Positions 2,393 to 49,869 of a stretch of 64,000 bases of DNA are shown here, piece after piece. The number at the start of each line of letters is the position of its first letter. The first letter of the stretch is position 1. A program made the translations under genes and the position numbers. Source of the DNA: Cirrosporium novae-zelandiae (lineage: Eukaryota); NCBI GenBank assembly GCA_026023565.1, contig JAPETS010000037.1:62001-126000 (forward strand). Reading direction: 5' to 3'. The notes beneath the pieces were generated by a model. That model saw only the letters and a program-made list of their open reading frames with translations, made no database searches and was not told the DNA's origin.

Positions 2393-3073
2393 ATTTCCCC
2401 TCCCCCTTTGAAAAAAAAAAACTAACCCCTGGGGATTAGAGAGTGGGTGGGGAATAGAAGGTGGAGGTGGGGTTTTTTGTTTATAGAGATTTTTTTTATG
2501 AATATAGAGAGAGAAGATAGGATACCCTGGTATATGAATGGATAGATTGTTATTATTAAATTATTAGTCGTGCTAAATCTCCTCTACCCCCTCGTATCCC
2601 ACTAACTAGGTACTCATCTCCATACATAATCCCCTCCCTATCCCAAAAAAATCCCTATCTCTCATCCCGAAAATCACAATAATGTCCCCTCCCCGTCATC
2701 GTCATCATCATCATTTCAACATCCTCCACATAACTCTCAATTCAAAGATTCCATCAAAAAGGAATTTTCTCTAGCGAGAATAGATCAAGGGTTTTTTTTT
2801 AGATTTTCGGATTCTAGAATAAGGAGATTCGTGAGAAGGCCCGGGGGGGGGGGGGGTGAATTAACATAAAAGATGTATTTTCTGGACCGTATTAGGTAGG
2901 GAGGGACCCAGATGCCCAACTAGTTACTCGCAGCGATCCAGACAAAATATCATTTTTTTTCTTTTCTCTCTTTTTCTGAAAACCCCCACGCCCTTGGTTC
3001 TCTCGTCTCTCTTTCTGGGCACACGCAAACACACAGCAGGAAAAAAGGGTTGCCAGGTAGGCCTAGACCACAA

Positions 3074-4055
3074 CTAGTCCAGCCTCTCCACCAGCCGCCT
3101 CACCAGATCTCGACCCAGAGCCCCCACTTCTTCCAGCAGCGCTCCAAACTCGCTGCTCGTTTGCAGATCCTCAACGACGCAAGCCGCATAGTGCACAACG
3201 AGGTCTCTCAACTCGTCCACCAGTCCTGCGCGATCGGCCGTGTTGGAGTAGGTATAGCGCATCAGCTCGATGATATCTCCGATTCGGTCTTGGCACAATA
3301 TAAATTTATCCAGTGCCTGGCAGAGGTTATGGAGGGCAAGCGATTGCAGGTTGGGGATGTTGTATCTGTCTCCAAAGACGTAGAGCTCTGCGTGGGAAAG
3401 GAATACGGGAGTGAAGTCTTTGTATGGTTCGATATTAATTTGAGGGTTGACAAGGGGAGAGGGAGCGATGTAGGATTTACGGCTAAAGGCGTTCCTGAGA
3501 AGAGACTTCCGGGATTGAGGGGGGGCTTGTTCACATAGAAAGTCTGGGAGCATCTCTACCCTGCCCTTTTTCCTTCTGCGAACTTTGGATGAAAGCAAAA
3601 CCGTACCAAACTCATCGATAGATTGGCGGGCTTCATCCGGGTTGTTGTCGTTGAGGGTACTAGGAGAGTTACCATTCACAACAGCATCCACGGTCTCAAC
3701 GCTTGACTCATCAAGCAAGATACCCGGCTCCGCAGCATCATACTCCCCTGTATAAATATACTGGCTAAATCTTACGAACGTCTGTTCGTTAACATCTTCT
3801 AAATATGCACACTGTTCCTTTGCCTCGCACATAGGTCCGTTGACTAGGACAGCAAGTACTTTCGAATGATGTGCAGCAAGTGCTGCATGGATCGTGAATA
3901 CTCTTTTGTTGGGGCCAAGAATAAAGCGAAAGGGATGAGACGAGACGATGCTGTTGATGAGGTAGCATTAGCTTTTCGTCTATTGTATTTTTTGGAGGCC
4001 GGGGATATTGAATCGAATTAGATTTGCCTTACCTTTCGTAGGAAATCTCCATCAT
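3074..4055 (-). CDS. BTB/POZ-domain protein, 2 exons
   Basis: Micro exon MMEISYE, GTAAGG intron, then IVSSHPFRFILGPNKRVFTIHAALAAHHSKVLAVLVNGPMCEAKE...FVRFSQYIYTGEY; C-terminal HAELYVFGDRYNIPNL typical of fungal BTB proteins. Confidence 0.85.
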
Positions 4056-5393
4056 GCCTGATCTGGAGAATTGCTTGGTTAATGAGAGTTAGTTTAGATG
4101 TATCTGAGAGCAAGCCTTGCCATGTATTGGAGACTGAGGGGACTTTTTTTTCTTCATCGTGTGCTGGTCGGCTACCTGGCTTATATATGATTGATGGGCA
4201 TATCTTCCTGCTATGACTTTCCTGCCTGCCTCTCTGCATTGATGACATGGATATTGTGTCATGTAGCGAGGTACATTTTGCGCATCCAGCCAGTTGCATT
4301 GCATGATAACTGATTATTCTACCCAAAAGATATTTGAATGGAATATTGTCAACACACGTGTTTGCCTAAGTGTGGCCTTGACCCCCTACAGGTCGTGTAC
4401 CCGCGCGTCACCAAGTACTTTGTAAAGGCCATTAATCTTCGTCTTCTTTAATATTTCTATTTTTCATTTTGACCGGAAGACTCTTATAATTTGAATCCTA
4501 TAATTCTTTTTGTATCTTTGACATTTAATATTGTCTTTGGTTTTGTGCATGATCGTAGATCCTTGCTTCCTGATTGACTTGTCTTATTAAATCATTTAAT
4601 TAATAGTGTACTCGAGTATGTAATCCATGCCTTTTCGAGAGACCATCGCTCCACACAAAATATACAGGTTCCCCAGACTTTCTCAGATGAACCATCTCCA
4701 CCTTGCTCAAACTTCAAATAAACTTTTGTACAATACATAAAACAGATACATTGGTTTCTTACAATGTAGTCTACGGCAATGCAACAAACTCGCTCATTTA
4801 GGAATAGCAAGTAGGTAATAAAACCATACGATACCATAACAGCGCATGTTAGCACCTCCACACATTCACATATCAACATCATTGACCCAATCCCATCTTA
4901 AATCAGTTTCTGTAAATTATTATAGGTTGGAATTCTATTATACAATTCAACACTTCCCAACATTGAATCCTAAAATACTTCCATCATCCTAAATAGCGAA
5001 ACAGTTAATCGATTTGAATGTATATATATACACTAAGGTGACAAGGGTAATTTCAGTCTGATCTAAATTAGGAATAGCCCGGTTATTTATGGAGTGTTGT
5101 CTTACATAGTACAGGTCATCAATCTCATCCTTTTGATGGTAGCACAGAACTTCGAATATGCTTCAATGACTATTTTATCTCTGTTTTTTTAAGTCTCCCA
5201 ATAAAGGAGTGCAGGAATGCTTCATCATTTATGGAAAGGAAAAACCCGAATTCTGCCGATTGCGGTGTCATGATTTGAGATTTCATGGCTTTCGAACCTA
5301 TAAGACGGCTTGCCAGATTTATGGATGTTGAAAGCAACAACTGACACGGATAAACTAATTGTACCGTTGAATTTGAAGTGAATTTATTAGATA

Positions 5394-7880
5394 ATGGCCA
5401 ACCATGTGACTTCCAACACGACAGAAGATTCTGATGAGGAGAAATCGCATACCACAAGCGATGATATAAGTCTCCTTAGCGACAGTGACAGCAATAGCAG
5501 TAAAGAAGACGAATCGATGCCAATGGGGCCATGGTATTATGAAAATCCTCCATGTGTGCCCGACAACTGCGCAGGTTATCTATGTGGGGTCTGCAAGCGT
5601 ATAAATTTCGAATGGCTCTTCGAAAATGATCTTAGTGCTACATATGATGAGTTATACCTAGATCATTTGATGGAGGAACAGGACTTGTCAGATACTACAG
5701 ATGAAACCACACAAAGCATTCCGCTTGGAACAATGGCAGGTATCGTCAGCAAGCAAAGATGTACGTTCTGTCGATTGTTGGTTCGATCAATCTGCACGAC
5801 ATTTGACATCGATTCTCCTATCACTGAATATAATGGCCAGCAAGTCACCTGCACGCTCGACAACCACCCAAAGGTCAGGAGTCAACTTATGGTTACGTTG
5901 AAACCAATTCCAACAGACTGGAGTGACGATCTTGCCAATGCTGTCAGCGACTTCATGTATGTTATCATCCATAGACTCGTAAAAGAGACCATTCCATCCG
6001 CAGGCCGATTCGTCCAGGGTTCTCTGATTAATCTTAAGATTCTAGAAAAATGGGTTTCCTCTTGCCATTCTAGCAACATCAAGTCCCTTGGGGGTGGGAA
6101 TATACATTCTAATAGTAGCCGCCTGGTTGGCTTCCGAGTTATTGATGTTAAGCGTCAATGTATCGTTTCAGCAGATGCTATTTCTTGCCGTTTCTTAGCA
6201 TTGTCATATGTCTGGGGAGGTAATCAGGAGCTCCAGAACACCAAAAAGACACAGACTTCATTGGAAAGAGAAGGCGGGCTGAAGATGGATGATAATAGAC
6301 TCCCTCAGACGATAAAAGATGCAATGTTCCTCGTGTCCCAGATAAAAGAACGGTATCTGTGGGTGGATTCTCTCTGCATCATCCAAGATGATGCAGAGTG
6401 CAAGCATAGTCAGATTGCTGCCATGGATCAGATATATACCCACGCAATCGCCACTATTATTGCCGTATCTGGGGATAGCGCCCGTTCGGGTCTACCCGGT
6501 ATCCGTCCCAATACACGAACATGGACCCAGCACGTCGAAAAAGTACAGGACATTATACTAGGCAACAGACACAAACTTGGACAACTTAACGGGAGTCCCT
6601 GGAACTCTCGGGCTTGGACATTTCAAGAGTGGCGCCTCTCAGGCAGGTCCCTTATGTTTTTCTCGGATCAAGTCATTTTTATTTGTGAATCTGGCCAATA
6701 TTTTGAGGATGTACACGAATATAACGAGACTCTTGTGGATATATTTTATAATTTTGAGACTAATGTTGATGCATATGCGAACTTGGTTGAAAAATACACT
6801 TCCAGAGGCCTTTCCTACGCAACTGATGCGCTGAATGCCTTTACCGGATTAATGGCCTTCATCCGCCCCACTTTCCGAGGAGACTTTCTATATGGCCTTC
6901 CAAGCACGGAACTAGACACTGCATTGCTTTGGCAGCCCATAGGTACTGGCACCCGGCGCCTTCATTCGGTCACTGGCATGCTACTCTTCCCTAGTTGGAG
7001 TTGGGCTAGCTGGGCTGGCAGTGTCTCTTATGATTTATCAGATCCTATGTCCATACTTGGCAGAATTACATGGCTTGATTCCACTACCTCATGCCCATTC
7101 ACAAGCGATGAATATCGTAGTTCTGTATCCACGGAAACACCCACTAAGTGGGAGCTTGCCGAACGGGGGACAAGTGACACGCAAATAGTAAATCCCTATT
7201 ATGTCGACCCCTCCGACCCGGATCTTCATTTTCTCCACCCCATCGAACCAGAGCTCTCAAGACCCTCCAGATATTTTCTTCGGCCTGGTTCCCAAACTCT
7301 ACGTTTCGAGGCCCTAACAACCATGCTCACTGTAACAACTAAGCACATGCCTAAAACCGTACAGGAAGAGACGCCGTCGTGTACAGAAGAGACACATATT
7401 ATATGCCCGCTTGCAATAATCAATACTTTTGGCTCCATAGTTGGTACTGTTCACATCCCAGCGTCTTTGGCACCTTCAAAACCAACTCCTTACCGATTCA
7501 TCGCCCTGTCTCGAACGGTTCTCCATGATCGCACTTCAAAGGATGATTCCTTCCGCGAGCATATCTTATATCATGATCACGATGTCATCTCCTCGAACCA
7601 CAATCCTGATTCAGCATCCCCATTCCAGCAGCAACGCACGTTGAAGCCTCTGGAAAAGAAGCTAATGGGGAGAGGTTTGGGATTGAGATCAAGGTATGCA
7701 TTCGATACGAAGAAGTTTGATCTGTTCAAACCATGGTGCTTGATGAATGTGATGATGGTTGCGCAGAAGCAGGGGCAGACAGGAGATGGTGTGTTGGAGA
7801 GATTGGGGCTTGGGGTTTGCCACGTCGAGGGATTTTTCGGAGATGGGAATGTGAGACGAGAGGAGATTATGTTGGGATGA
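5394..7880 (+). CDS. Heterokaryon incompatibility (HET-domain) protein, 828 aa, intronless
   Basis: HET motifs FLALSYVWGG, LPQTIKDA, RYLWVDSLCIIQDD, QIAAMDQIY, WNSRAWTFQE; downstream FPSWSWASW; N-terminal CxxC motifs. Confidence 0.92.
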   Translation: MANHVTSNTTEDSDEEKSHTTSDDISLLSDSDSNSSKEDESMPMGPWYYENPPCVPDNCAGYLCGVCKRINFEWLFENDLSATYDELYLDHLMEEQDLSDTTDETTQSIPLGTMAGIVSKQRCTFCRLLVRSICTTFDIDSPITEYNGQQVTCTLDNHPKVRSQLMVTLKPIPTDWSDDLANAVSDFMYVIIHRLVKETIPSAGRFVQGSLINLKILEKWVSSCHSSNIKSLGGGNIHSNSSRLVGFRVIDVKRQCIVSADAISCRFLALSYVWGGNQELQNTKKTQTSLEREGGLKMDDNRLPQTIKDAMFLVSQIKERYLWVDSLCIIQDDAECKHSQIAAMDQIYTHAIATIIAVSGDSARSGLPGIRPNTRTWTQHVEKVQDIILGNRHKLGQLNGSPWNSRAWTFQEWRLSGRSLMFFSDQVIFICESGQYFEDVHEYNETLVDIFYNFETNVDAYANLVEKYTSRGLSYATDALNAFTGLMAFIRPTFRGDFLYGLPSTELDTALLWQPIGTGTRRLHSVTGMLLFPSWSWASWAGSVSYDLSDPMSILGRITWLDSTTSCPFTSDEYRSSVSTETPTKWELAERGTSDTQIVNPYYVDPSDPDLHFLHPIEPELSRPSRYFLRPGSQTLRFEALTTMLTVTTKHMPKTVQEETPSCTEETHIICPLAIINTFGSIVGTVHIPASLAPSKPTPYRFIALSRTVLHDRTSKDDSFREHILYHDHDVISSNHNPDSASPFQQQRTLKPLEKKLMGRGLGLRSRYAFDTKKFDLFKPWCLMNVMMVAQKQGQTGDGVLERLGLGVCHVEGFFGDGNVRREEIMLG

Positions 7881-27517: not shown

Positions 27518-28614
27518 TTAATCTTCATGTGTGACCGCCATATCTAGAACCTCCACCCTCCCCCTCCCTCTGGTCTCAGCGCCTATGAACTCGCTCAGGC
27601 CCTTGAACGCTCCCGGTTCCACGAACCCAGTCACCTCCCACTCAGCGCCGAGCGTATCCTGCGCTTCCACCTGCTCCACGTAGCTCAGGATCCTATCCTT
27701 GACCGTCCCCTTCGTCTCTCCTCCTTCGGCGGCAGCCTCGCCAGCCGATTTCGATTTCGCTGCTTGTTTTAATTGGGCCGTGGGACAGGTGACGCGCAGG
27801 CGCATGCGCGCGCGCATGATGGGGATGGGCTGCCATGCGATGAGCGCCTTCATGGCATCCAGGGCTTGCGATTTTGCGGATTTGGTGGTCACGACGCCAG
27901 TCCAGGTGGGTCTTGGTTTTGAAGGAGCAGGGCTGTCTTTCGAGGCGCCGCCATTCGTGGTGGGGGTGGTGGTTCCGCTTGCCGCCGCGCTGTCTTCGCT
28001 GTGTCCGCCTTTCGAGCTCAGCACCTCCAACGCCTTCTCAATCATGCCGGTTGTGTAGACCCTCCCGCTGCGTGGATCTACTACCTTCCCCGCTACGATC
28101 TCAAGGACCTCTTTCTCCAGCCGTTCCAGTTCGCTTTTCCGTTCTTTCTCGCCCACCTGTAATTCTCCTTTCTTTAGGATCTCGAGGATGATGTCTTCCT
28201 GAGAGGTGTTTGCGCCGAACGATTTCTTGAGGTCGGCTGTCGGGGCCAGCTGGCCCTTCGAAACGGAGAGGAAGACGGATGGAATCTGCAGGACATTGTC
28301 GAGGTCTGTTTCGGCGCCCGTGCGGTATTCGAGGACTTTGTTTTTGTAGCAGGCTACCTCGTAGCGTTTTTTACCTGGGTGTGGGAAGAAGGGGTTAGAA
28401 TATGGGGTTTTTGTGGTGATGACGGCTGGGAGAGATGATTTACCTTTTTTTAATCGTACAAGGGAGACATTTGTGAGTTTGATTTGATTGGAGGGCTGTT
28501 AGGTTTTTATTTATTGATTAGTATTGGACTGTTTTTTGTTTGTTTGTTTGTATATTGAGAGAATCAATTCACGACGAGTGGAGCGCATACTTGATTTATC
28601 TTTCCTCCAGGCAT
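27518..28614 (-). CDS. SDO1: Ribosome maturation protein Sdo1/SBDS, 3 exons
   Basis: Spliced MPGGKINQ|PSNQIKLTNVSLVRLKKG|KKRYEVACYKNKVLEY...LDNVLQIPSVFLSVSKGQ; KSAKSQAL, RARMRLRV. Confidence 0.95.
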
Positions 28615-32321: not shown

Positions 32322-35222
32322 CTACCTCTCTACCTTAAGTCCCTCCAACCTCTCGGCCAACCTCTCCCACGCAGGCGACCCCTCCCACCTCTCCCTCCCA
32401 CGACCCATAACCCCCCTAACCGCACTCCTACTCTTAAACCTCCACTCCTTACAAACCAAAGTCCCATCATTCATGCCCTCCCTCTGCCTCTCCCCAAGCG
32501 ACTCATACGCATCGCACAGCTCCTCCGTCTCCCTCGCTACCTCCTCAAACACCCTCCCATCATCACCATCAACGATGTTATCTTCCCAGTTAGACCCCCC
32601 CGAGGGTGCCAGCGCCGCCCTCCACGCATTCTCGTTCGCGGAGAGAGAGGCAAAGGGTCGATTTCGCCAGAGCTGGATCCGCGCCACCAGGCGCCAGAGT
32701 TCTGCGGAGTGCGTGATTACGGGGATGACGTCTTTGTCCATGAGGCGGAGGAACATGCGCGTGATGCCTCTGTTTGCGGATTCTGGGCTGTAGGGTTTTT
32801 GGGATATGATTGTTCGGGTGACGAGGGAGAGGATGAGGATGTCGATTTGCTTTTCGGCGGAGGAGCCGCTGGTGGTGCTTTTGGAGCTGCCTTGGAGGGA
32901 AAGTTGAATGAGGCGTGATTGCGCAACTATGATTGTGGCGATGTCTGGGGGTGAGACTGAGGCGGCTACTGTGAGGAGGTTGGAGGTGATGCGGGGGTTT
33001 TGGGGAGCTAGTCGTGAGGCTTGATTGAGAGCGTGCAGAGCGGAGTGCTTGTTTGAGTGTTTGGTTTTGGTTTGGGAGTCTGGAATTTTTTCTTCTTCGA
33101 CCTCTTCGTCCTGTAGAGGTGGCGGTGCAGGCAAGACTTCGGTACCCCTGAAATCTTCGGGGAGTCTCAGGAGCGCAGCCGCGAGATTGCTCCATGCTTC
33201 CGCATCGTCGTCCTGAATTTGGACTGATTGTGTGAATGATTCGACTGCGCTTGGCCAGTCTTCTAGTTGTAGGTAGACGCAGCCCACGGCGAACCAGGTG
33301 GAGGCGTTTAGTCGGTTGATTTTGAGACTGCGCCTGTATGCTTCCGCTGCTTTTGCGTATTGTTTTGTGGTGACGTAATGGCGGCCAACTGACCGCTGGG
33401 CACGTGCGTAATGATTGTTCGAAACTTCCCATGCACGCTCGTAGAGTGAGGGCTCGTGGTCAAGATCGCCCAGGATACAAAAAAGCCGTGGAGCGTTAGG
33501 TGGGAGCGGGCGAAGTTCCGGTCCTTCGTACTTGTCGTTCTCATCTCCAGCCCCACTTGCAGTATATAGCTGCCTCCGAACTATTCTTCGAGCCTGATCT
33601 TCGCGATCTACGGCTGCATAGCAGAGGGCTGCCTCGGGCCACATGTGCAGACGCTCGTAGATCTCAAGAGCGGTACGTAGGCCACCGAGATTTACCCACC
33701 TAGCCGCGAGCTCAGCTTCGAGATCCCAACGCGTCGGAGAGGACAGTGCATATACATATCGAAGACGTTCGGAGGCCGGAGCAGATTCGGAGGGCTTGGG
33801 CTTCGGGAGGAAGGCTGTGGATGGCGCGTCACCATCTGCATTATTAGGGAGCACTTCAATATTTGGATCGGAAGATCCGATGAAACTTGTTTCGGCAATA
33901 ACTTGATCCACTAGGGCTTGCAGTTGAAGGACGCCTCTCTCAACTGTCCGTGATCTGTAGCCTTCGATACGAGAGCGGACGAGAAGAGCTTGTGTATACA
34001 CTTGCCAGTTGGAACTTCCTCCTTCAAGGACTCGGGTTGCATAGGGTAGTGTTTCTTCGCGGGTTAGACCATGTTCGGGGGAGGTGTTCGTGATGGAAGA
34101 GGCAAGGGAGAGGAGAATAATAGAATCAAGAGGCTTCAGCTGTGGTTGATTGGAGGGATCAACAGACATAAGTGCCCGAGGAATGTCTCTTTGTAGTTCA
34201 TGTGCGCTAGCGGTGGGCTTGGAAAAAGAAATGGCTTCTAGAAGGGTATCGTCGTTTAGATCGATATTATCAGGCTTGGTCTTCTGGTCTAGGTTTTCTT
34301 TATTTTCTGCGGGAGATTTTCCATTTCTATCTCTCTCGGTCGCTTCATCCCAGCTTTTAGCCAGTACCACTAACTGACTAACATCCTTCTGCTGGAATTT
34401 TGTTCTCTTTCCCAGTCTTCCCGTTAGTACATACTGAAATCTTCTTGTCATCGTTGCTTCCTCTAAGTCTTTTCTAGCCTTCTTATCAAGACCGTGTTGA
34501 GTATAAATGGCTGCTCTCTCAAGCAAGAATTGGACTCTTGCATCTTTGGAATATCCAGAAGCGATCCCCAGTACTTCTTCCCCAACAATTTTCAAGTCAT
34601 CGAAAATCAAACTCTGGAGTGAATCTGTATTCTCCGAAAGCAATTTCTGATGAATGAAGTTGACCCTCAACCTCGCCCATCTTGCACCTGGAACCATGTC
34701 AATAATTTCATGGCTATTCAGGATTCTTCGTGCAGCGCAAAGAAGCTCCACATGTGGAATCAATTGGTACGCTGTCTCTCCGTCAACCGTCAAGCCCTCA
34801 ATCATACGCTTCTGCAGCGTAGAGGCTTCTTGGCCTGAGGTACGAAGGACTGAAGGAATGAGGAGATCTGATGGGTTGAAGGAGAGAACGGGTCCAGTAA
34901 CATTAGACTGGAGAAATGCTTCGAGAGCGGCGAGCCCAACGCAAAAATAGTTAAATGCTCGAGATAAGTGGAGATCACAGTCATCAGCAGCATCTTTGAG
35001 TAAGGAACCGACTGCACGGGTGTAGAAATCACCGGGATCCTGATCTCCCAGAGATAATTCTTTTGAGCTTATAATTTCTCTCGTTTGGGGTCCAGAAAGT
35101 ATTTCTTCATATTTGCCTTCTTTGAGGTCTTCAACAATTTGGAGTAACGCCTTTTTGGAGCTCAACCTTGGAGTTTGCTGAAAAGCAGCCTCTAGAAAAG
35201 GAAATTGTGCGAAATCCATCAT
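32322..35222 (-). CDS. EMW1: TPR-repeat protein Emw1/TTC27
   Basis: Long single ORF with AFLQSNVTGP, LTGRLGKRTKFQQKDVSQL, SSNWQVYTQALLVRSRIE, TVERGVLQLQAL and C-terminal TPRs. Confidence 0.88.
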   Translation of the reverse strand: MMDFAQFPFLEAAFQQTPRLSSKKALLQIVEDLKEGKYEEILSGPQTREIISSKELSLGDQDPGDFYTRAVGSLLKDAADDCDLHLSRAFNYFCVGLAALEAFLQSNVTGPVLSFNPSDLLIPSVLRTSGQEASTLQKRMIEGLTVDGETAYQLIPHVELLCAARRILNSHEIIDMVPGARWARLRVNFIHQKLLSENTDSLQSLIFDDLKIVGEEVLGIASGYSKDARVQFLLERAAIYTQHGLDKKARKDLEEATMTRRFQYVLTGRLGKRTKFQQKDVSQLVVLAKSWDEATERDRNGKSPAENKENLDQKTKPDNIDLNDDTLLEAISFSKPTASAHELQRDIPRALMSVDPSNQPQLKPLDSIILLSLASSITNTSPEHGLTREETLPYATRVLEGGSSNWQVYTQALLVRSRIEGYRSRTVERGVLQLQALVDQVIAETSFIGSSDPNIEVLPNNADGDAPSTAFLPKPKPSESAPASERLRYVYALSSPTRWDLEAELAARWVNLGGLRTALEIYERLHMWPEAALCYAAVDREDQARRIVRRQLYTASGAGDENDKYEGPELRPLPPNAPRLFCILGDLDHEPSLYERAWEVSNNHYARAQRSVGRHYVTTKQYAKAAEAYRRSLKINRLNASTWFAVGCVYLQLEDWPSAVESFTQSVQIQDDDAEAWSNLAAALLRLPEDFRGTEVLPAPPPLQDEEVEEEKIPDSQTKTKHSNKHSALHALNQASRLAPQNPRITSNLLTVAASVSPPDIATIIVAQSRLIQLSLQGSSKSTTSGSSAEKQIDILILSLVTRTIISQKPYSPESANRGITRMFLRLMDKDVIPVITHSAELWRLVARIQLWRNRPFASLSANENAWRAALAPSGGSNWEDNIVDGDDGRVFEEVARETEELCDAYESLGERQREGMNDGTLVCKEWRFKSRSAVRGVMGRGRERWEGSPAWERLAERLEGLKVER

Positions 35223-36038
35223 TGTAGGAGTATTGGGTATCAAATGTGTGCCTTGGGAAAAGATCTCAGAGTTTTAGGTCGTAAGCCCTATTGAAAATAA
35301 TTTATACGTCCAAAAATCCATATACCATCATAGCTCATGTAATCAGTTATCGTACCTTCATTATTGTCAACATATTTAAGAATGATGGTGCTGGAGATGG
35401 CTGGTTAGTTTACTCCAAGATAGATTAGTTCGAATTTTTTTACTGTTATCGAGTTCCTATGTCATGGTGGTCGTCATCTACGAAAGCCAGTGGATGCCTG
35501 GTTATTGAGGCAGCCAGTAATCAGACCACGTGATTATCACTAGACTAATTAGCGTTTCTCACGCAGGCCACACAGGCCACACAAAGAAGTCTTTCTTCAA
35601 CTTATCCCATCTATCTTGCTCATCAATGTGGGGCAAAAAGGGGGAAGAAACACACGGCCCCCATGTACAATTAACATAATCCGCAATTGGTAATTATCCT
35701 TCCATGACACGTTCTCACAGCACTAAATACATAAAAATATTCCTAGGCCCATTCTTATTTGTCTAACTGACTACCTCCGTCTTGTTTCCTCGCTTTAGTA
35801 TATATGCTAAAGTAGTCGCCTTGTTGCTATAGTCTAAGAGATCTTCTGCTCACGTTGTCTACCTGGGTACTCATAAATGCCGCTTTAACTATTCCAGAAG
35901 TATTCGAAGATTTTATCCTGGTTGAGTTGCTCCTGTTGTTGTTTTTTTCCTTGTGTGGTTTACTCTCCCAGAGTAACTTGACATATCCTACAAATTACTT
36001 TGGCAGCTTGCATTCTATTTTTTTATTGCTTTTAAACC

Positions 36039-38385: not shown

Positions 38386-39517
38386 CTAAAGCCCCTTCGT
38401 TATACCCGGGCAAATATCCTCCAGCTTAACAACAAGTTCGCCCCAAACTTTCTTCTGCGCCTTCTGGCCTTCGGGACTGGTGACGAATTCCCCAAGGGCG
38501 TTGCTGTTTAAAAAAAGGAGGGGGAAGTCAGAATCAGGGGTCTAGCTCCATGCGAGTTTGGATCAGGAGGGTACTTACTTTTTGACCAAACAACCACTGA
38601 TGTAAATCCCATGGGATTCGGGTCCCACAGTTGTGCCATGGACGAGTGTTCGGCTGCCCTTTTCTGCTGACCGTGCCAGGAGAGTTTTCAAGACCGTCAT
38701 CACGATGAAGGAGACGCCAGTTGCGCTTCGCGATAGGGATGTGTGGCAGAGGCCGGGGTTGACGGCGTTGATAATAACAAGGGGTTTTTTGTTGGCGGTT
38801 CTGTCGGCGATTTCTCGGACGGCGAAGAGTTGGAGGAGTTTTGAGACTGGGTAGCTACGTGCATTGATCGGTTAGTGTTGTTGATTATATAGATGTGGGG
38901 TGAAGATGCTGGGTGGCTGGAGGGGGTACATGCCGGTCTGTCATGGGCGTTTCTTTGTCGTTGAGGGTGGCTAGCGAGTTGGGTGCCTCGCGCTCCGGGA
39001 AATTGGTGTAGGCATGCACTTCTGAATTGACGATAGTGATGATGGGCATAATGTTCCATTTTGCTGCGAACGTGCGTAATGTTGGTAGTAGAAGCAGTGC
39101 CAGCAGCGTGGTGCTCACGACGTTCACTGTAATGGTACTCTCGTTGTCCTCGAAAAGCTCGAAGTTAGCTGTTGCAATACCAGCATTCAGGACCACGGCG
39201 TCAACGCGGGATAGCTTTGCAACTTTGGCAGCGAATGCTTTGACTGAGGCATAGCTGGAGTAATCAAGCCCCCAGACGTCCACAACCCCGGTGCGTTTTG
39301 TTTCGGCCTCGATCTCGGATTTGGCTGCCTCGCCTTTAGCAATGGAGCGTACTGCGACGATAACTTTCTCGGCATTCAGGCGAACGAAATGCTTGACGGC
39401 CTCTTTCCCAAGGCCAATGTTTGCGCCGGTGACAATGATAGTTTTCCCGGAGAAGTCTGTGTCAGGATATGGAATAACATCCATGAACTGGGTGTGGATA
39501 AGGGTGAATATCGGCAT
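38386..39517 (-). CDS. Short-chain dehydrogenase/reductase, 3 exons
   Basis: TGANIGLG, VLNAGI, spliced RYPVSKLL, VNPGLCHT, ARSAEKGSRTLV; ends WGELVVKLEDICPGITKGL*. Confidence 0.88.
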
Positions 39518-40219
39518 GGTGTTAATGGAAGAAGACGAATTTATGGACTTCAGTTGAGCTGTGGTAGTTGTTATTATAGTAGACAATAAGGTACAATACA
39601 ATGGTGCCGAGACTATGGCGAGGACATTTATCCAAAGTCGTACTTTCAACAGCCTTTATAGTATGAAAAGGCAGCAATGAATTCGTAACAAGCCATGATA
39701 TGAATCCTACTGACGTCATACAGTGTCAAGAATAGCCATCCAACATTGTGGTTCTAACTGGCCTTTGACGTCAAAGTAGAAGATAAGTGTGAAGGGAATA
39801 AATGTAAGTAAGATAGGCTAAATAGACCGTTCTGGATGGGATGTTTCCATCTGAAAACAAATAGTTTTATCAAGCCTTAGTGGTTTACTTAGGCAAAGTC
39901 GGGGGAATATCTGACCGGAAGTGAAAACTTGGGTCGGCGTTTTTAAGCCCGTCATTAAGTCCGACCCGGAGATCGCATACTTGAGAAGGAATTGGGAGCC
40001 AGCAACTGGGACGCAACCCTACCTAGGTAGTCTCTTCTCACTTCTCGCCCTTAGGTCGACTTGACAGAAGAGCCTTGCAGTGTTTTAAGGCATATATATA
40101 TAAAGAAAATCCACTCACAGTATCAAAGTGACAAGCCCTCGGGATTGAACAAGACTAGGAGCTCCCTTTCAATGTTCAATGATTTCCCGGCAGGCGCAGT
40201 ATAGATGTCGTAAATTCAT

Positions 40220-41914
40220 CTAAGGCTCAAGGGCATGTTTGTTTCCTGTCTTAGGATGCGTCTCAGGTAGCAAGTCAGTCCCACAGTTTTTGAAGCATGA
40301 ATGCTCAAGAGCTTCTTTGGCAGAAATTCGTTGTGACTGATCCCACTCTAGCATACGATATAGAAGATTCTCAATGGAATCGTCTGGTGCATCGTGTAAC
40401 ACTTTAACTGCATCCTGATAACGAGATTTTTCCAAGAGTAATGATCGCCAAGGACTTCTCCCTCTAGTAACGAAGAGTTGAAATCCTACAACTCCCAACG
40501 CCCATATATCCACACGGTTTGTATAAACTTCGCCTTTGACTTGCATTTCCGGAGCCAGGTATGGAATAGTTCCAATATAACCAGGAGTTGATTTAACCTC
40601 AGCTTGCTTGATTGCCTGGCCAAAGTCAAAAATCACAATTTGAGGCACAGTATAACTAACGATACCCAGGTTTGCCGGCTTGACATCCCGGTGGATGATA
40701 TTATGCCGATGCAATTCGTTAATTCCTTCCAAGGCTTGTTGGAAGAGACAAAGGGAAGTGTTTCTGGTGAGTGTTTTAGCGACATCAAGCGTTTCCCGAG
40801 CAAGCGGTTTCCAGATCAAATGGACCCTTTCCGGCCGTGGACCTCTGTACCATCGGTTCCCCCGCTCATACACAACGTCAACTAGTTCCGCCAAATAACA
40901 CTACGCTACAATCAGTACATGTTTCGATTGGTCTGTTGAGGAAGGACTTTTATCGTGTCTTACATGTTTAGGCAAATTACGTGCCAGAGCGATTTCCGAT
41001 CCCGTCCCTCGAGTATTCCTTGGATTGCGAATCACTAGTTTTGCTGCAGCTTCGGCACCAGACGCCCTGTGTTTGGCGGCGCTGACAGTACCAAAACTTC
41101 CTTGGCCTACTGTTCCCGTGACGATCCAGTTTCCAATAACATAGTTTGTGTCCGAGGGAGTCGCAGAACAATCTGGCGGTGGGGAAGAAGCGCCGAGAAA
41201 GTCGCGAAGGAAGTTTCGCAACTGCTCCTGGAATCGTTCCTCATCCTCATCAGTTTGAGGCGCACGTTCAAACTCATAAGCCAAATCGCCGAAGGAAATT
41301 CTATTCTTACGCGACAGTACACGACTCCCATCACGGGCTATATCATCGTCACCTACAACAACAGGCCTTCTAGGGTTGTCAACACAAACGAGGAAAGACC
41401 CGTTCCGAAGAAATGCAAATCGCGCATGAACGCCTGCAAGCTTCCACTGTGGGTGTCTCGTTTTGGCAAGAAGAAGGTCGACTCTACCATTCGTCTTGTT
41501 TCCAAACTTGCCCTCCCATCTCCCTCCTCCAAGCTGCCATCCAATAGCTGGCGCTTGTGGCATTGTTTTGAAAGACAGATAATAATAGCCATTCCAAATC
41601 TCTCTTCGGGCCTCCTGCTGAAGGCCGTCTTCGGATTCGGTCTCGGTTAGGTGATCATTGTCAAGGCTGACCTTGGTGTCCTCGATATGTATAAATTGTT
41701 GAGCATGTTTGAAGCGATCAGTGCCTTCAATTATTTCATTTGCGACTTCATGAAAGGCTAAACGAGCCTGCAAATTGGCAGGTCGCAGATATGCGAAGAT
41801 GGAGGATTTATTGCCGTCGAAATAGAGCTTTCTTTCGGTATTATTAAGAGAGTTGTGAGTAGTATAAAAGTCGTCAGGATAAGGAAGCGTAGATCCATCT
41901 GATTTATCTGTCAT
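40220..41914 (-). CDS. Ser/Thr protein kinase with N-terminal FHA-like domain, 2 exons
   Basis: GWQLGGGR...LAGVHARF...ISFGDLAYEF (FHA-like); GQGSFGTV, AAAK, intron ~40963-40901, HRDVKPAN, DFG, GTIPYLAPE, DIWALG all intact. Confidence 0.88.
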
Positions 41915-42341
41915 ATTAGTGAACTACAAAGTATATTCAGAGTTGGGGATAAACATCATGGATGGGACAAAAGACATACCTGGGAAAAAGATTGCTACTA
42001 AACGACGGGCGTTAATTGTGCATATTGCGTGTAAGCTATCCGTACCTTGTCAGATTTCGAAAATTGATCCAACCAAATTGATGCCTAAGGAAGAGAAAGG
42101 TACTTATGGGCGTGTAGCCCTACTCGAGGAGCTGTAGCCTACACGGCACTCTAAGCTTTAAGGCCTCGGGTGTTGAAAGACGGAAAGTTTCATCTCCGAA
42201 CACCGGCGTCTTCTCGCTTCTCAGTCTGATCTCTAGCCGAACTCTCCCTCTTTTCATCACATTCGACTGATCATCAGAACGAACATCCATCACAGGAGTT
42301 ACTTTGCCTTTCATATCACCTATCGTCTTTGATATATATCA

Positions 42342-43059
42342 ATGGCCATAGGTCGTCGATCTATGTCACCATTTCTTTTCCAGTCTCCTTGCCAGGTCCC
42401 TGACCTGGTAGAGCATGCATCTCATTTGGACAAAGCCCTGAAACGCCACATCGAACTTGAGGAACTTTCATATATGTATCGATGCCAAAAATATGGCTGC
42501 AGAGTCACTTGGCCTCGCGGAGATACCCCGGAGGAAATGCGAACAGCCTACGAGGAGAAAATTCAAGCCCAACTACGATGGTGCCGGGAAGATTCGTTGG
42601 AGTCCGAGTCTGATTCTCCAAATGAATCTATGAACTTTGGCTTAGATGCAGGCCATTCACATTCAAGGAAACGACGAGCTGAAGACATGATGAGCCAATC
42701 CCTAGCTGATAAACGACCTGCCAAAAAGCTCAAGCTCCCAGACTTTGGGATAGTTCGGAAAAGAGTCAGACCACAACTTACTCCTCCAACTAGTACACAC
42801 AACAGGTAACAACATGTCGCTATGACGTCTAAACGGCTATCCGAATAAGTTCTAACAAGGGATCTACATTAGCTACAATGTTTCACCCATCCGAGACCGT
42901 CCTAAAAAACCCTGGAACGCCCTTCCTCGAATTCCCAACTCTCGCAGTACTCATCCTATGGTAACAAGGTCTCGAGCAAGGCTCCTAAAGAAGAAGAAAA
43001 AGAATATGAAGAGGTTGAATCCAAATTTGAAAACGACAACGAAAAAACCGCTATCATAG
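42342..43059 (+). CDS. Small basic hypothetical protein (NLS-like RKRR/PAKKLK; C-terminal STHPMVTRSRAR), 2 exons
   Basis: 155-aa ORF, GTAACA donor at 42806, CTAAC branch, TAG acceptor at 42872, open exon 2 to TAG at 43057-43059. Confidence 0.65.
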
Positions 43060-43439
43060 ATAATTCAGGAGAGAAAAAAAATTATTAAGGAACGAGGATA
43101 CTAATACTCAATAACTCCAACATCGCGTTTTCGCGATAGGCCTTACCATTTCCTCATCCCGTTTTGCTAGGGCTATCTCAGTTACCACCAAATCGGTATA
43201 CTAGAAGCATGGAAAGCTGTTGCAAAAAAACAACTGGCTCTCAAGCAATGCTACTGGCTCTGGAATACAGACGTACAGCTGGCAAGGCAACATGCTCTTC
43301 CTGGGTTATGTATTTTGTCGATATCGATCTCCCAATCCATTGAATTTAATAAGTTCTGGGATGCAAGATTGTTATCATCAGGGAATCATGATGGAATGGA
43401 CAAAATATGAATGAATCATCAGAAGAAGGAGAAAGAGGA

Positions 43440-44010
43440 TTAAGAATCCCCCAGGTTAGCCAAACGTGAAACTTTTCCCAAAATCTGGAGGCCGGTTTCC
43501 AGAGCTAAACTTGGCCAGCAGTACTTTATCGGTAAGTAACTCGACTTCTCGGCTTGTGCCCTAGTTTTCTAACTTGCCCTGGAGAAGGGATCCAATGTTA
43601 CGATTGACTAATCCTTTGCTTGATAATGCGTGCAGATTCTACGAACTCCAATACCATCGCTATCTATCACTGTGACGAGCTTAGCGAATAATCCAATAGC
43701 TCGCTGCACTAGATATCCACAAGAGAAATTTGCCACCTGGTTTGGCGTAGTCCAGAAGTAATTCTTTGATACCTATAGGTACTCATTGGTTATTCAGATG
43801 GCCTACTAATTCTTGTTGAACGTTATTAAGAAAGCTGCTCGCATCATGAGTACCATCTGGAGAACAAATGCCTCTGCCAACATGGAATTCTCCATCAATG
43901 CTGAATCAAGATGCCCATAAGGAAAGCTTAAACGCAATACCGTGGATTTTCTCATCGTTCTTAGCTTCATAAGATCTAAGAGAAACTGGCTCTCTAGCCA
44001 ATGTACACTA
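43440..44010 (-). pseudogene. Possible degenerate coding relic of unknown family
   Basis: One frame reads protein-like for ~190 codons (LAREPVSLRSYEAK...IKELLLDYAKPGGKFLLW...) broken by scattered stops; family not recognised. Confidence 0.3.
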
Positions 44011-44566
44011 CTTCTCTGGTCTCAACAATGTTATTATAATGATTCAAGAAGTATCCAAGCATGTATTTCCGTCTTATCATGGGTTGTTTGTTCAGGTGCC
44101 AAGGAATCTTCAGCTAGCATTGTTTTCATCCTGTCGGGTTACCATGTCATTCCAACCTGACAAAGAAGATCACCATACTATGTTCTAGCTCCTTTTGCAT
44201 CGACATTGCTTTGGCAAATGGAAAGGATCTCTTCCTAGAATCGACTATTTGTGCATAGGATACCATGCTAGCGAGTAATCTTGAAAGAAAGTCATAGCAA
44301 TACAACTTTATCAGATTAAATAGCTAGCAATGACAAGAAATACTACTGAAGCCATGATTTTTAGTGTGATATTTGGACATTTCATGTAGAAACTATATAG
44401 ACATTTGATTCCATTGATTCTACCACAGTATGTCGCCTAATCATACGCCCTGTTTGAAGATACTACTATGCTAGGACATGTCCACATCACATCAACTGAT
44501 ATCCTTACCCTCATCTATATTGTTATCTATGTTGTTGAATGTAGGAGAAGCCTTGAGGATCCTCAC

Positions 44567-44567
<1 letters not shown>

Positions 44568-44596
<29 letters not shown>
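44568..44596. repeat. Poly-C tract (~29 nt)
   Basis: Homopolymer run read directly; shorter G/C runs occur near 2842, 10439 and 31194-31243. Confidence 0.9.
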
Positions 44597-44670: not shown

Positions 44671-46135
44671 TCACTCCGCCAACGCTTTCCTCAACGCCGC
44701 AATCGCCATCTCATTATAAAGCCTCCCACCCTCCAAAATCCCATCCAGCTGCATAAAAACATGAGGCACTCCCGGCACGCGAACAATCTCAGCCACAGGG
44801 GCTTCGGCGGCTTCGTTCATTTTCCGGCCGTAGGCTTCGCCCTCGTCGCGGAGGGGATCCATCTCTGCTGTTATTATGAGGGCGGGTGCTAGGTTTGAGA
44901 AATTGGGGGCGAGGATGGGGGAGATTTTGAAATCCTAGAGAGGGAGAGGGGGGGTTATTAGGGGTGTAATAAGCGTGTGTGGTTGTTTGCAATGGGAGGA
45001 ATGAAACTGGAGGAATCTCGAACTTTGTTCGGAGAATCATGCTAAGAGCAAAGACGCAGGGAAAAAAAACAAACAGACAAAGCTCACATTCTCCGACCCC
45101 CTTGGGCGCGGAACCCCCAAATAATGCCTACAAAAATACGCCATCCTCTCCGCCGGCAGCGCAGGTGTAAACTCCATCTCGCGATACGACTCATAAGGAC
45201 AACTCTCGCGGTCGAATTCGCCTTCAGGTGTAAACATGCTATGGAGGTCGCAGACGGGAACCCCCAGCAGCTGGAATCGAAGCGGGATCTGCTGGTCGCG
45301 GCAGAGGTGGGCGATTACGGCGCTGATGCAGCCACCGGCGGAGCAGCCACCGACGGCGACTCGATTGGGGTCGAGGTTTAATTCGGAGGCTTTTGTGGTG
45401 AGGATCTGGTAGTTGGTTTGGGTGAGCTGGGGGGTTGGGTGGGTAAGGGTGGGTAGGGGAAAGGATGGATGGGGTCTTGTTGAGGAGAGATTCCTAAACT
45501 AAATCGTGCTGGGGGAAGGGGGTTGATTATACGGACAGACATATGCGTGCGTATATGTATGTATGTATATACACATTACGTACCCAATTAAAAGCCCTCC
45601 AACAATCATCCACAGGCAAAGGATATTTATACTCAGGCGCAAGCCTATAATCCACATCAAATGCAACAACCTCACCATCCAACTCATGAACAATCCGTTT
45701 ACAGAAATCATGATCCACCATAAGGCCCCCAAAAACCCACCCCCCGCCATGGAAATTTATATATGCACCCCTCTTCTTTTTCATCTCTCCACCACCCACA
45801 TCCACAAGCTTCGGCTCCGGCTCAAAAATCCTAACCACAATCTCACCTCCCTCGACGGGGCATTTTTGCTCGCTGATACGGTATACATCCGGCCCCGTAG
45901 CTCGGCCATAGGAAATGGTATATTTTAGGGGGTTGGCACGGTAGTCTGAGATTGGGACTTCGTGGGTGTGGAGGCGGCCGGCGTTGTGGAGGTTGTAGTG
46001 CGAGACGTAGATGGGGTCGAAGCGGGGGAGGAGGTTGGGGGGAATGCTGTTGTGGAGGGGTTGGTGTATTGTGTAAGGTTTTTGTTGGTTTAGATATTCT
46101 GTTGTGGAGGGGGTTGGTGGTGGAGGGTTCGACAT
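44671..46135 (-). CDS. HSL-family esterase/lipase (Abhydrolase_3), 3 exons
   Basis: INFHGGGW, DYRLAPEYKYP, spliced AVGGCSAGG, TAEMDPLRDEG, PGVPHVF. Confidence 0.9.
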
Positions 46136-47136
46136 GTTCACTGTATGTAGTATTATGTAGATATATGCCAATGCCCTCTTTTTTTTGTAAAGAGATTGTT
46201 ACTTATAACTAATTATCCACCTCTTCTCCTTCCCTCTCCCTACCCTTACTTTCTTTCCATAATAAAATAATAAATGGCATGACTGGCCCGTTCTCGGACG
46301 TTGTAACGTGGGATAAGGTAACGGAGATACTGTCAGGTACCGTGTAATCTATCGGCATTTAGCCTATCTCCCTCTTACAACAACATATGATTATAAACAA
46401 AAAATATATTATTCCTTATCTAGAAGTTCATTAATTCAAAGCCCATCACCTGTTAATTATATTATTATTGTTATAACATGACCTTTTCAAGTCGGTTCAG
46501 GGTACTCGGGATGTGAGTGAGTGGCTTTGCGAACTGGTGGGCGCTTGATGTGTGATGTAATGCTATCCCCCCCCTCTAGCTCGCTATGCATCGCACCGTC
46601 GTTCACTTTCTCAGTGGAGGAAGGTGTACTCTAGTAGTACATTCATCCACAGCTGCATAGGACGCATGGGATTCCTTGTTTAGTGAGGCCTTTGCTATAC
46701 TGTCAAACTGTGCCGATTTCTAGGATGACGGTATTGTTTATTATATTGATATAATTAACCTACTTGTTCCATCTATATCACTGTCAGGGAAGACATTCTG
46801 TCTGCCTGCTCTTATGCGCACATATACATGTGATATCTCTCAGCATAGCTCAAGTGGAAAATGTCCGTTATACTCGGTAATTACTCGTGAAAATGCGTCT
46901 AGGCTATCCGTTTCTAGATCCTTTTCTTCGATATCATGTCAGCCTATAGAAGTTAGTAAGAATAGATTATGAACTTCTTTTCCTTGAGTGTTTTGATTTC
47001 CCTCTGTTTTCTGGAATTATATTTTCTCATTGGCGTACTCCTTGCGCAAAGCTCTGTATTTGGGTGTAAATATCTGATTGAAATATGAAAGCGCTGGTCT
47101 CTAGACGATTTCCAAGGCGCAACATAGTGCAGAAAA

Positions 47137-49869
47137 TTACGGCACTCCAATCCCTGAGAGATCTTTGAGAAAGTCAAGGTTGCTCTCCATAATAAACGGC
47201 CCCATTTCCATCTCACCAAGATCCCAATTCTGACATTCAGAGAGAAAAGATTGGCTGTCTTGATGGGAACTTGCTTCTGACCCAGCGGAATTTAGGGCCA
47301 GCTGTCCTCTAGTCCTGTTATTAAAATTATTAGTCTCTGGTGATTGGTTTGGTAGCAATCCTTTATCCAACAGCTTCTTAAGGTAACGGCGACATCTATC
47401 AACCATGTGGTTGCCGACATCTAGCTTTTGTAGAGCATTGATGGCCATATCCAAACTTTTCCTCATTTCATCGAATGTGGCAGGCTGTTTCATGTGAATG
47501 TTGGAATCCTCAGAGCAGATAAGCCAGATTGCGAAGATTGCAAGAGCAGAGTTGAAGGCTATATTTTTCTTAGCATAGAGCCCTAGAACATTCACACGAG
47601 CCATTGCGAGAAGGGAGGAGAGTGGATAACCTACTGTAATAAAGTGAGTACCACCAAGCTCCGAGAGCAGCTTTCCGCTCACCGAGATCATGAATAATAG
47701 TGATGATCTCCATGGCCGAATCGAGACTCAGTTGTACACTACTCCACCCCATTTGCTTATAAAATGCCCACTGGCTATCACTTGGTTCGGCTCTGCCACA
47801 GTTATTTAGTAATCTCATAAGGATAGGACGGTGAAGAAGATTTCGTAAGTTAAGGTATCGAAGAGTAAGTATCGTTCTGAGTCGACTGGAAGTAGAAGTA
47901 TCTCCAATTATCCCAACGAGCCTAGTGTTGGCTCTTAATTTCAACTCAACTGGAAGAGCAAGTAGCCACTCTGCAAGATCCTGCTCCAACTCTACTATAT
48001 GACACATCATTTCAGAAATCTTCTCGGTTGTACCACATCCAATGTTTTGACCATATAGTATATCAATTGTTTTCCACATGATTTTATATAACATTCTAAA
48101 AGTAGTCAGTAATTTTGTTCATACAGCGGGCTTTGTTTGATAAGGATTACATGGTCGCATTGAAGAAGGATATGCTTAATGATGCATCATGTATTGATAT
48201 AAATCGAGCTGTTAGACCATCAATCTGCCTTGGCAAATCCAGCTGTAAGTAGCTATCTGGGATGCTTGCCGGCCTGCCGAAAGTCATACTGAGAGTTCTA
48301 AGGACATGGATGAGAAAATGAACGATTGATCTAGTCCGGCAGGTATTAATAACTAACCTATCCATCAATACACAGGCATACCATGTCCTCTTACGCTCTT
48401 CTCGCTCGATTGTCGTGAATCGTTTTGAGACCTCCTCCGACTGTAGACCTAGCTGAAAAGCAGATTTCACCGCTTGCCCATGTACTGCATAGGTTTGCAC
48501 GGACCTCTGAGACCCTTGAAGATACTGCACCATTAAAAGAAGATACTGGACTTTATACGCCATTTGTGTTAGCAACAATATGACATTGATCTGACGAATT
48601 TCTCGTTGTAAAGATTCAACGTACCCATCTCAAGACTTGTTCCTTGCATATCTCGCTGTTTTGATAAACCAGCAGCCCTCCGATAGAATATGTCAGACGA
48701 AGTAGTCCTTTCGTTCACCGTTAGCCTGTCATCAACTCGAGAGCCCATGGCATTAGCCATAATCATATTAAACAACGCCAACCAAGACATTCGCATAGCC
48801 TTGAAATTCTCCCGCTTCATCTGTCTATACGTTTTATAAAATGATTCGGCATGGATATAAGGAAACAAAAACCCAGTATTGGAAAAATACTGTTCCGCAA
48901 GATCTAACGCTTCAGATTCCGCAGGCAAACTATACAGATTGAGACGAGGTGTTCTGCCTTGAACTTGAGAGGCACTTATTGTTCGAGATGTACTCATTAT
49001 GGCGGTATTAATTTCCGGGCTGACCTCAGAGCTTGAGAAAGTTGGATCGCGGGTCGCTACTATAGCATTTGATATATGACCCATTAAGGCAATGTTGGAA
49101 GAGGGACCTAAACGAATGAGAAAGTGGGTCGAGATCAATTAGTTAGCCACCTGAACACATACCAAAGAATCCTGAGTCTTGCTCATCTGCAAAAGCAATA
49201 ACGCCCATACCATCAACTGAGCTTTCAACGTGCCCTTCTTCATCTTGAGCCTCTTCGATGGCCAGTTCGCAAGAACCATCCAGTATATCGGAGTCATTGA
49301 AGCTAGCTGCACTAATGGCCCCATTCGAGAAATGTCGATTAGTTATACTTGATTCGGGTGTATGCGTTGATGCGCCCCCTTGACGCCTGGCTGTCCCACT
49401 TTCGAATCTACGCAATCGATCTTCCATGGCACGTAATCTCCGTTCCAGATTCAATACGCTTCTTCAAAGTCATTAGAGACATGTCATGATCATACATTCC
49501 GGATGGTCACTCTTACTCCTGGTCTAATCCAGCTCTTGTAGTCGAAGTAGGCACTTTATACACACACTCATACCCTGCGGACGTACACATGGAACAAGCT
49601 GGTTGGGTTCCATCACACTGGCGAAAAGTAAAAATATTAGCCCAGGTATTATACTAATCGGTACGGGTGAGACAATCAGATAAAGATCTCACACGAGACT
49701 TTTTTATTCGACATCGATCGCAGGCCAACGCAACCCGTCGTCGTTTCCTGCCTCGTGGTGAAGCGTCCGCTCTCTCATTATCTGATGCGTAGTTCCCAGT
49801 AGGTTCATTTTGGTACTGAGAATTGGTCTTAAGTAACTCTTGAGAGCTTTGGTTTGGTTGGCGACTCAT
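47137..49869 (-). CDS. Zn(II)2Cys6 transcription factor with fungal-specific TF domain, multi-exon
   Basis: ACDRCRIKKSR|CDGTQPACSMCTSAGYECVY; YFSNTGFLFPYIH; AFQLGL...REERKRTWY...DR|LSMTFGRP. Confidence 0.92.

Follow-up and report, generated by a model that had tools for sequence, protein, structure and literature searches.

We analysed a 64,000-nucleotide stretch of the Cirrosporium novae-zelandiae genome (NCBI GenBank assembly GCA_026023565.1, contig JAPETS010000037.1, positions 62,001 to 126,000 of the forward strand), referred to here as the window, and within it a pair of genes at positions 40,220 to 43,059. The first gene, on the minus strand, encodes a Ser/Thr-type protein kinase of 543 amino acids in two exons. 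The second, on the plus strand, encodes a predicted basic protein of 216 amino acids, and the two genes diverge with 427 bp between their start codons. Our reading, to which we assign a probability of about 0.5, is that this is a real divergent gene pair, probably a conserved functional unit, in which the small protein would act as the dedicated partner of the kinase. A functional two-gene module is plausible because a divergent small gene is also present beside the kinase at two related loci (L001 and L003), and because the layout and a C-terminal motif of the small protein are shared with that of L001.

Gene Structure of the Pair

The features of the pair are as follows.

40220..40900, minus strand: kinase exon 2, 226 codons plus the stop codon (40222..40220), encoding the C-lobe with HRD, DFG and APE (Pfam Pkinase)
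40901..40963, minus strand: kinase intron, 63 nt, GTAAGA...CTGAT...TAG, phase 0, after '..LPKH' (read from the sequence; position conserved in relatives)
40964..41914, minus strand: kinase exon 1, 317 codons, encoding the FHA-like domain, linker, G-loop, Lys292 and Glu307 (open reading frame and family alignment)
41255..41809, minus strand: cryptic FHA domain (approximately residues 36-220), into which a helix is inserted at 48-63 and which has an acidic loop, predicted to be disordered, at 84-104 (AlphaFold2, Foldseek and VIA-align)
41915..42341, no strand: shared 5' intergenic region, putative bidirectional promoter (from the coordinates of both genes)
42144..42293, minus strand: additional and probably spurious first exon of the kinase in the public model P0002 (residues 1-49 of that model map here by tblastn)
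42342..42805, plus strand: small gene exon 1, encoding first a weakly acidic N-terminal portion, in which helices are predicted at 21-51 and 63-87, and then a disordered K/R-rich stretch
42806..42872, plus strand: small gene intron, 67 nt, GTAACA...CTAAC...TAG (splice matches the public model P0122 exactly)
42873..43059, plus strand: small gene exon 2 including the stop codon, encoding a very basic tail (C-terminal 100 amino acids, pI 12.0)
42943..42975, plus strand: conserved C-terminal motif RSTHPMVTRSR (P0122 residues 179-189), matching PSTHRMETRSR of L001 at 8 of 11 positions

An earlier reading of this DNA, made from its letters alone (the sequence-only reading), had described head-to-head genes about 430 bp apart, a kinase with a full set of catalytic motifs, and a basic partner of about 217 amino acids. 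The measured distance between the start codons was in agreement with the first of these. All of the catalytic motifs were found in the kinase, and the Pfam Pkinase profile (PF00069) matched exon 2 with 96.6 bits (2.1e-27; cut-off 31.7), while the end of exon 1 covered profile positions 4-55. In an alignment of 33 family members, GQGSFG, K292, E307, HRD387-389 (HRDVKPAN), N394, DFG409-411 and APE433-435 all fell in invariant or near-invariant columns. Judged by its sequence, the first gene encodes an active-looking Ser/Thr protein kinase. Compared with solved structures, its kinase domain was generic, with CaMKII, CDPK, CDK2 and AMPK all matching at approximately 1e-20 to 1e-18.

Both predicted proteins are exact matches to public hypothetical proteins from a metagenome-assembled Cirrosporium novae-zelandiae. 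The kinase intron is spliced identically in the public model P0002, which is 596 amino acids long and includes an extra 5' exon. No counterpart of this exon was found in any of six full-length relatives or in any of 32 other family members; the ATG at 41914 was therefore taken as the kinase start, and the extra exon is probably an annotation artefact. If real, it would leave 48 bp between the two start codons.

The small protein is identical to the public model P0122. It has a pI of 10.26 and a K+R content of 21%, in line with the basic partner expected from the sequence-only reading, with a first 90 residues of pI 5.9. Inspection by eye identified the K/R clusters RKRR, KRPAKKLKL, RKRVR and KKKKK. 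The protein is very basic, predicted to be mostly disordered, and probably nuclear.

Linkage in Related Loci

Related loci were sought in metagenome contigs. A first scan with patterns of the window type gave 189 pattern matches, none of which was confirmed, and a second scan with patterns of a sister subfamily identified three loci (L001, L002 and L003). A further candidate from a scan of prokaryote genomes (L004) was rejected as spurious, since it lies antisense to a riboflavin-synthesis-type open reading frame (ORF).

In L001, an intact kinase begins at position 6001 on the plus strand, and an ORF of 229 amino acids lies at 5703..5014 on the minus strand, 297 bp away. In L003, a contig of 1.1 kb, the kinase begins at approximately 535-556, and an ORF on the opposite strand starts at approximately 240 and runs off the contig end, leaving a spacer of about 294 bp. 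A divergent small gene was thus present approximately 295 bp upstream of the kinase at both related loci whose kinase is intact at its 5' end. By its own terms, the sequence-only reading would have been refuted by a lack of linkage between homologues of the two genes elsewhere; on this small sample (2/2 loci) the pair passes that test, and the head-to-head linkage looks conserved.

The small ORFs of L001 and L003 share 55% identity over 60 amino acids (E 1.25e-17), and their kinases share 57%. The small ORFs are about as conserved as the kinases, a pattern that speaks for selective constraint and fits a genuine protein. Pfam analysis of the two ORFs returned no match except for one FAM193_C row (E 0.033), which was treated as noise. 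The spacers of both loci (L001:5704-6000 and L003:~240-535) hold the 13-mer CCAAATAGCCGCT, a candidate promoter element. This 13-mer is absent from the window spacer, and no promoter word of at least 7 nt was common to the spacers of the window, L001 and L003. Beyond the pair, no gene neighbours were visibly common to the window (a short-chain dehydrogenase and an alpha/beta hydrolase) and the flanks of L001.

Relationship Between the Small Genes

The kinase N-termini of the window and L001 are 38% identical. Between the corresponding small proteins, BLASTP identified two weak and collinear segments, residues 45-78 against 48-81 (E 0.025) and 180-195 against 213-228 (E 0.14), the first of which includes TPEEMRTAY in the window and TPEDLQEAY in L001. 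By phmmer, the two exons of the window small gene ranked third and fourth among 1583 six-frame ORFs. The resemblance between the C-terminal motifs was reached by none of 3000 global shuffles and by 5 of 3000 shuffles within 30-residue blocks (p <=0.002). The two proteins are also similar in length (216 and 229 amino acids) and in charge layout: both have a pI of 10.3 overall, with N-terminal 90 residues of pI 5.9 and 4.4, respectively, and C-terminal 100 residues of pI 12.0. On these sequence comparisons, we consider it fairly probable that the window small gene and the L001/L003 small gene belong to the same family.

The N-Terminal Domain of the Kinase

The AlphaFold2 model of kinase residues 1-258, built on a 100-sequence alignment, had a mean pLDDT of 85.7 and a pTM of 0.81. 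Among the matches listed in a Foldseek comparison with the PDB, all were FHA domains (best E 2.9e-4, probability 1.00), including those of TIFA, KIF1A, Rad53 FHA1, OdhI/GarA, Dun1 and Nbs1. An exhaustive VIA-align search of 48,161 representative chains gave 52 chains at Z>=8. The best 45 rows were all FHA domains, with Z scores of 12.4-8.8 over model residues of approximately 32-220, and Smad7, at rank 46, was the single non-FHA row among the best 50 of the 52. Z scores included 12.4 for EmbR, 12.2 for DgcB, 12.0 for Rad53 FHA1, 11.9 for GarA, 11.7 for CHK2, 11.3 for Mek1 and 10.0 for Dun1.

Profile searches gave weaker results. The Pfam FHA family (PF00498) had no match in the window kinase at E<=10, and at E<=0.001 it matched none of the 60 relatives of the N-terminal domain, of 150 listed, that were scanned. 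At a loose threshold (E<=1), it matched 9 of 100 family members, with a best value of 2.3e-4 and all below the usual trust level. A PDB sequence search with the N-terminal 258 amino acids returned one chance match (E 0.71). According to the predicted model, the N-terminal ~220 residues of the kinase form a strongly diverged FHA domain. We regard this fold assignment as sound because the model is confident, the best structural matches are exclusively FHA domains, and weak Pfam FHA matches occur in 9/100 family members.

The FHA site residues were assigned by aligning the sequence by hand to the FHA consensus. On this alignment, G131-R132 and H163 are retained, A160 takes the place of the Ser in the SxxH motif (AGVH, residues 160-163), and the S/T-x-N-G loop reads N-P-R-R-P. 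The AGVH noted in the sequence-only reading, within what it called an FHA-like domain, is located at residues 160-163 of a region that folds as FHA in the model. The family consensus at the SxxH site is [VL]xGxHA, and on the aligned sequences the canonical phosphothreonine contacts are partly lost across the family. A zinc-finger reading of C48-x4-C53 was rejected by inspection, as the downstream His is missing.

The Kinase Family

A search with the whole protein identified 172 proteins at E<=1e-3 (7,999 candidates scored). Only six others, from Neofusicoccum, Lasiodiplodia, three Diplodia and Amylocarpus, cover 68-85% of the kinase, at 32-41% identity. With the N-terminal 258 amino acids as the query against 1.84 billion representatives, 287 cluster representatives (clusters at 50% identity) were found at E<=1e-3, 91 at <=1e-10 and 5 at <=1e-30. 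A Pkinase domain lies downstream of the N-terminal domain in all 31 scanned relatives of at least 495 amino acids. Among the 29 shorter scanned relatives, Pkinase was present in nine, and in eight of these only the first ~60-70 profile positions were covered. Complete short forms end in '..LP.HV..', a read-through into the intron at the position of the window's intron; they are therefore exon-1 fragments, and the kinase intron is conserved. With such an intron, prokaryote-style gene calls on metagenome contigs give fragments of ~300 amino acids that read into it.

The names of 30 family proteins were checked and were all generic or automatic. Named sources comprise Leptodophora, Cadophora, Xylona, Caeruleum, Botrytis, Botryotinia, Monilinia, Scytalidium and Cryomyces, as well as Fonsecaea, Pseudocyphellaria, Phlyctema, Polytolypa and Zymoseptoria tritici/brevis. 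We take these to span the Leotiomycetes, Dothideomycetes, Eurotiomycetes, Lecanoromycetes and Xylonomycetes. One Leptodophora assembly carries two near-identical copies on separate contigs. The kinase belongs to a large, uncharacterised and fast-evolving family of filamentous ascomycetes. In search listings and abstracts, no paper describing the kinase family or the gene pair was found, and a literature search on Cirrosporium novae-zelandiae returned only taxonomy papers.

In most family members, the kinase domain is followed at the C-terminus by a short basic patch resembling G-x-K-R-x-R, which could serve in nuclear targeting; the window kinase has GNKHALEP at this position. Among the Zymoseptoria tritici relatives (P0199 cluster, P0291/P0292), the family member of strain IPO323 is annotated only as fragments of 83 and 76 amino acids, and other strains have a full protein of 580 amino acids on contigs of 0.42-0.68 Mb. 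The IPO323 fragments sit on a contig of 773,098 bp, the length that Goodwin et al. 2011 (PMC3111534, Table 1) give for dispensable chromosome 14 of Z. tritici.

Genomic Surroundings

The neighbouring genes in the window are as follows.

27521-28498, minus strand: SBDS ribosome-maturation protein
32325-35273, minus strand: TPR protein
38885-39655, minus strand: short-chain dehydrogenase (SDR)
44790-46198, minus strand: alpha/beta hydrolase, Abhydrolase_3, several exons
47140-49138, minus strand: Fungal_trans transcription factor

These neighbours are ordinary, and close to the pair there was no sign of a transposon or of a core gene for secondary metabolism. A degenerate relic had been suggested to the right of the small gene, and this was not borne out. 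Searches of 43060..44500 by tblastn with four family kinases and the small protein gave nothing credible, and none of the ten short ORFs in this interval had a Pfam match better than E 0.067. Elsewhere within the 64-kb window, no paralogue or relic of either gene was found. The likely source assembly has the stretch once at >=80% likeness, and three DNA contig sets gave one identical record, two tiny kinase-loop pieces and nothing, respectively. A low-complexity run encoding about ten prolines (glycines on the other strand) lies at 44530-44580, beside the 3' end of the hydrolase gene.

Alternative Explanations

Several results weigh against reading the two genes as a conserved unit. Only two loci are informative, and both are from one subfamily. 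In L003, the kinase ATG is followed after six codons by an in-frame TAA (535-555), just before the conserved 'ARLTPAN'; this early stop may be a nonsense mutation or a sequencing error, or may reflect a different start. At the third locus, L002, the small gene is missing, but the kinase there is itself frameshifted and truncated at its 5' end. The kinase match (L002:6001-7229) starts at P0002 residue 209, right after a stop codon, with the first ~150 codons gone, and the frame shifts in the catalytic loop (..IKPSNLE and a stop, then GIVSS.. in another frame). We read L002 as a copy in decay, set among few genes, and therefore as uninformative on linkage. For the homology of the small genes, the reciprocal phmmer search ranked the L001 ORF only second of 542, the whole-sequence phmmer score was matched by 170/3000 shuffles (p 0.057), and a two-sequence HMM score was matched by 143/5000 (p 0.029). 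P0122 has no match to any Pfam family at E<=10 and no relative but itself in 5.8 billion clusters (a word-indexed search with 3 candidates), and comparison of its structure gave chance-level rows (best score 0.80, TM <=0.29). Its AlphaFold model, built from three sequences, is of low confidence (pLDDT 57.8), with helices at 21-51, 63-87 and, C-terminally, 187-203, and disorder elsewhere. The codon score of the small-gene frame (+0.04; other frames -0.27 and -0.18) lies below those of eight confident ORFs (0.13-0.27), and ORF length alone is no proof, as by our estimate about 3-4 stop-free stretches that long should arise in 64 kb by chance. Judged on its own features alone, the small gene would be a doubtful orphan. 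Furthermore, on the alignments the canonical phosphothreonine-binding Ser and Asn are absent family-wide, and FHA-type phosphopeptide reading by the kinase is therefore doubtful.

The marginal whole-sequence tests, the lack of any other homologue of the small protein and its weak codon bias would all fit mere adjacency, in which a stand-alone accessory kinase lies beside an unrelated orphan or an over-predicted ORF, and the likeness to L001/L003 arises by chance among basic low-complexity tails. Compact fungal genomes contain many head-to-head pairs with only a few hundred bp between them, and divergent neighbours are common in fungi generally. We nevertheless consider chance adjacency unlikely, given that kinases only 38% identical to that of the window are accompanied by a gene alike in orientation, spacing, size, charge layout and motif, that shuffled sequences reached the motif so rarely, and that the small genes of L001 and L003 show roughly the degree of conservation seen in their kinases. 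Less probable again is that the small gene is non-coding, either as regulatory DNA upstream of the kinase or as a promoter-associated divergent transcript, with the public model being an automatic prediction. The low coding score and mostly disordered product are compatible with this, as is the doubtful kinase exon that the public annotation also places in the spacer. Against it stand a frame that two distant lineages have kept free of stops for 216-229 codons, the 55% amino-acid identity between L001 and L003, a canonical window intron with a CTAAC branch site, and a frame 0 that outscores both other frames.

We also considered a selfish or conflict pair (toxin-antidote, allorecognition or genome defence), in which antagonistic proteins would form a mobile unit. 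The points in its favour are circumstantial. The family looks dispensable and fast-evolving, with its 287 clusters at 50% identity; two near-identical copies lie on different contigs in Leptodophora, the truncated and frameshifted copy in L002 has a Pkinase_fungal (FunK1) fragment nearby (2688-3389, minus strand), and the flanks differ between the window and L001. The IPO323 fragments also lie on a contig whose size is that given for dispensable chromosome 14, as cited above (PMC3111534). However, there was no sign of repeats, of transposon genes or of a second copy, and the stretch occurs once in the source assembly. A toxin-like domain is also absent, and the kinase has a conserved intron and ordinary composition, which together make this explanation improbable.

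Proposed Function and Its Significance

If the two genes form a conserved unit, as we favour, the pair would be co-expressed from a common promoter of ~300-430 bp. The small protein would be a dedicated partner of the kinase, serving as a substrate or docking adaptor, and its Thr-containing motif STHxMxTRSR might be phosphorylated by the kinase domain, read by a non-canonical surface of the FHA domain, or both. The small protein may direct kinase activity in the nucleus, a location suggested by its K/R clusters. The more specific suggestions of the sequence-only reading, that the small protein recruits, inhibits or is a substrate of the kinase on chromatin and that the pair may be of a selfish or defence type, are speculative. 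A broader account, which we put forward only tentatively, is that filamentous ascomycetes have an unrecognised, ancient two-gene signalling cassette, often lost or duplicated, in which a kinase with a re-purposed FHA domain and a rapidly evolving, disordered nuclear protein share one bidirectional promoter. The conserved STHxMxTRSR tail would then be what the kinase acts on or is anchored by, perhaps at nucleosomes. With its accessory chromosome location in Zymoseptoria and its pseudogenised copies, the cassette would be an accessory element that may serve genome conflict or non-self recognition.

Should the linkage hold family-wide, several hundred hypothetical fungal kinases would gain both a cryptic-FHA assignment and a candidate partner, and an anonymous accessory kinase family would become a tractable kinase-substrate or kinase-adaptor pair. 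Some of the carriers of the family are plant-associated and lichen fungi. The kinase would also provide an example of an FHA domain that is without the canonical phosphothreonine contacts yet is still fused to a kinase.

Comparison with Known Systems

The checkpoint kinases Chk2, Rad53, Dun1 and Mek1 have the same domain order, FHA followed by a Ser/Thr kinase, and their FHA folds match the predicted N-terminus (CHK2 3i6w Z 11.7 and 1gxc Z 11.6; Rad53 FHA1 5t2s Z 12.0; Mek1 5yyz Z 11.3; Dun1 2jql Z 10.0). Dun1 and Mek1 each have a small dedicated substrate (Sml1 and Hed1, respectively), which is an analogy, and not evidence, for the relationship proposed here. Unlike the Chk2 type, the window kinase has no Pfam FHA match, its phosphothreonine-contacting Ser and Asn loop are replaced on the manual alignment, and its family is not universal in fungi; unlike Chk2 and Rad53, it has no SQ/TQ within residues 1-130. 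Orthology with Chk2, Dun1 or Mek1 was rejected: the kinase domain is no nearer to Chk2 than to CaMKII, CDK2 or AMPK, and its best solved relatives were CaMKII, CDPK, CDK2 and AMPK (5e-20 to 6e-18), with no Chk2 or Rad53 among the best 60. To our knowledge, Chk2-type kinases have not been reported with a genomically linked partner.

Bacterial kinases are often encoded beside FHA partners, which is likewise an analogy. In PknH-EmbR and PknB/PknG-GarA, the kinase and its FHA-based recognition are encoded as neighbours, and the EmbR FHA domain was the top structural match (2fez, Z 12.4), with GarA close to it (6i2q, Z 11.9). In these bacterial pairs the substrate or partner carries the FHA domain, whereas in the window the kinase itself carries it, and the candidate partner is basic and predicted to be disordered. 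TIFA gave the best Foldseek match (4zgi, E 2.9e-4), a resemblance of fold only at 10-19% identity. Its FHA domain binds its own phosphorylated Thr9 tail, which offers a model for an FHA domain that reads one phosphothreonine in a short disordered tail; however, TIFA is without a kinase domain and keeps the canonical binding residues, and the window protein differs in both respects.

HMGN proteins, with the core RRSARLSA, and LANA carry arginine-anchor motifs for the acidic patch of the nucleosome. The tails TRSRARL in the window and TRSRTLA in L001 loosely recall RRSARLSA, and such a short basic motif is not specific; no match to HMG14_17 was found on P0122 at E<=10. The nucleosome-binding-like motif of the sequence-only reading probably refers to this tail. 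Taken against these systems, the architecture of an FHA domain plus a kinase is known, and what is new here is the cryptic, non-canonical FHA domain together with a candidate conserved partner gene.

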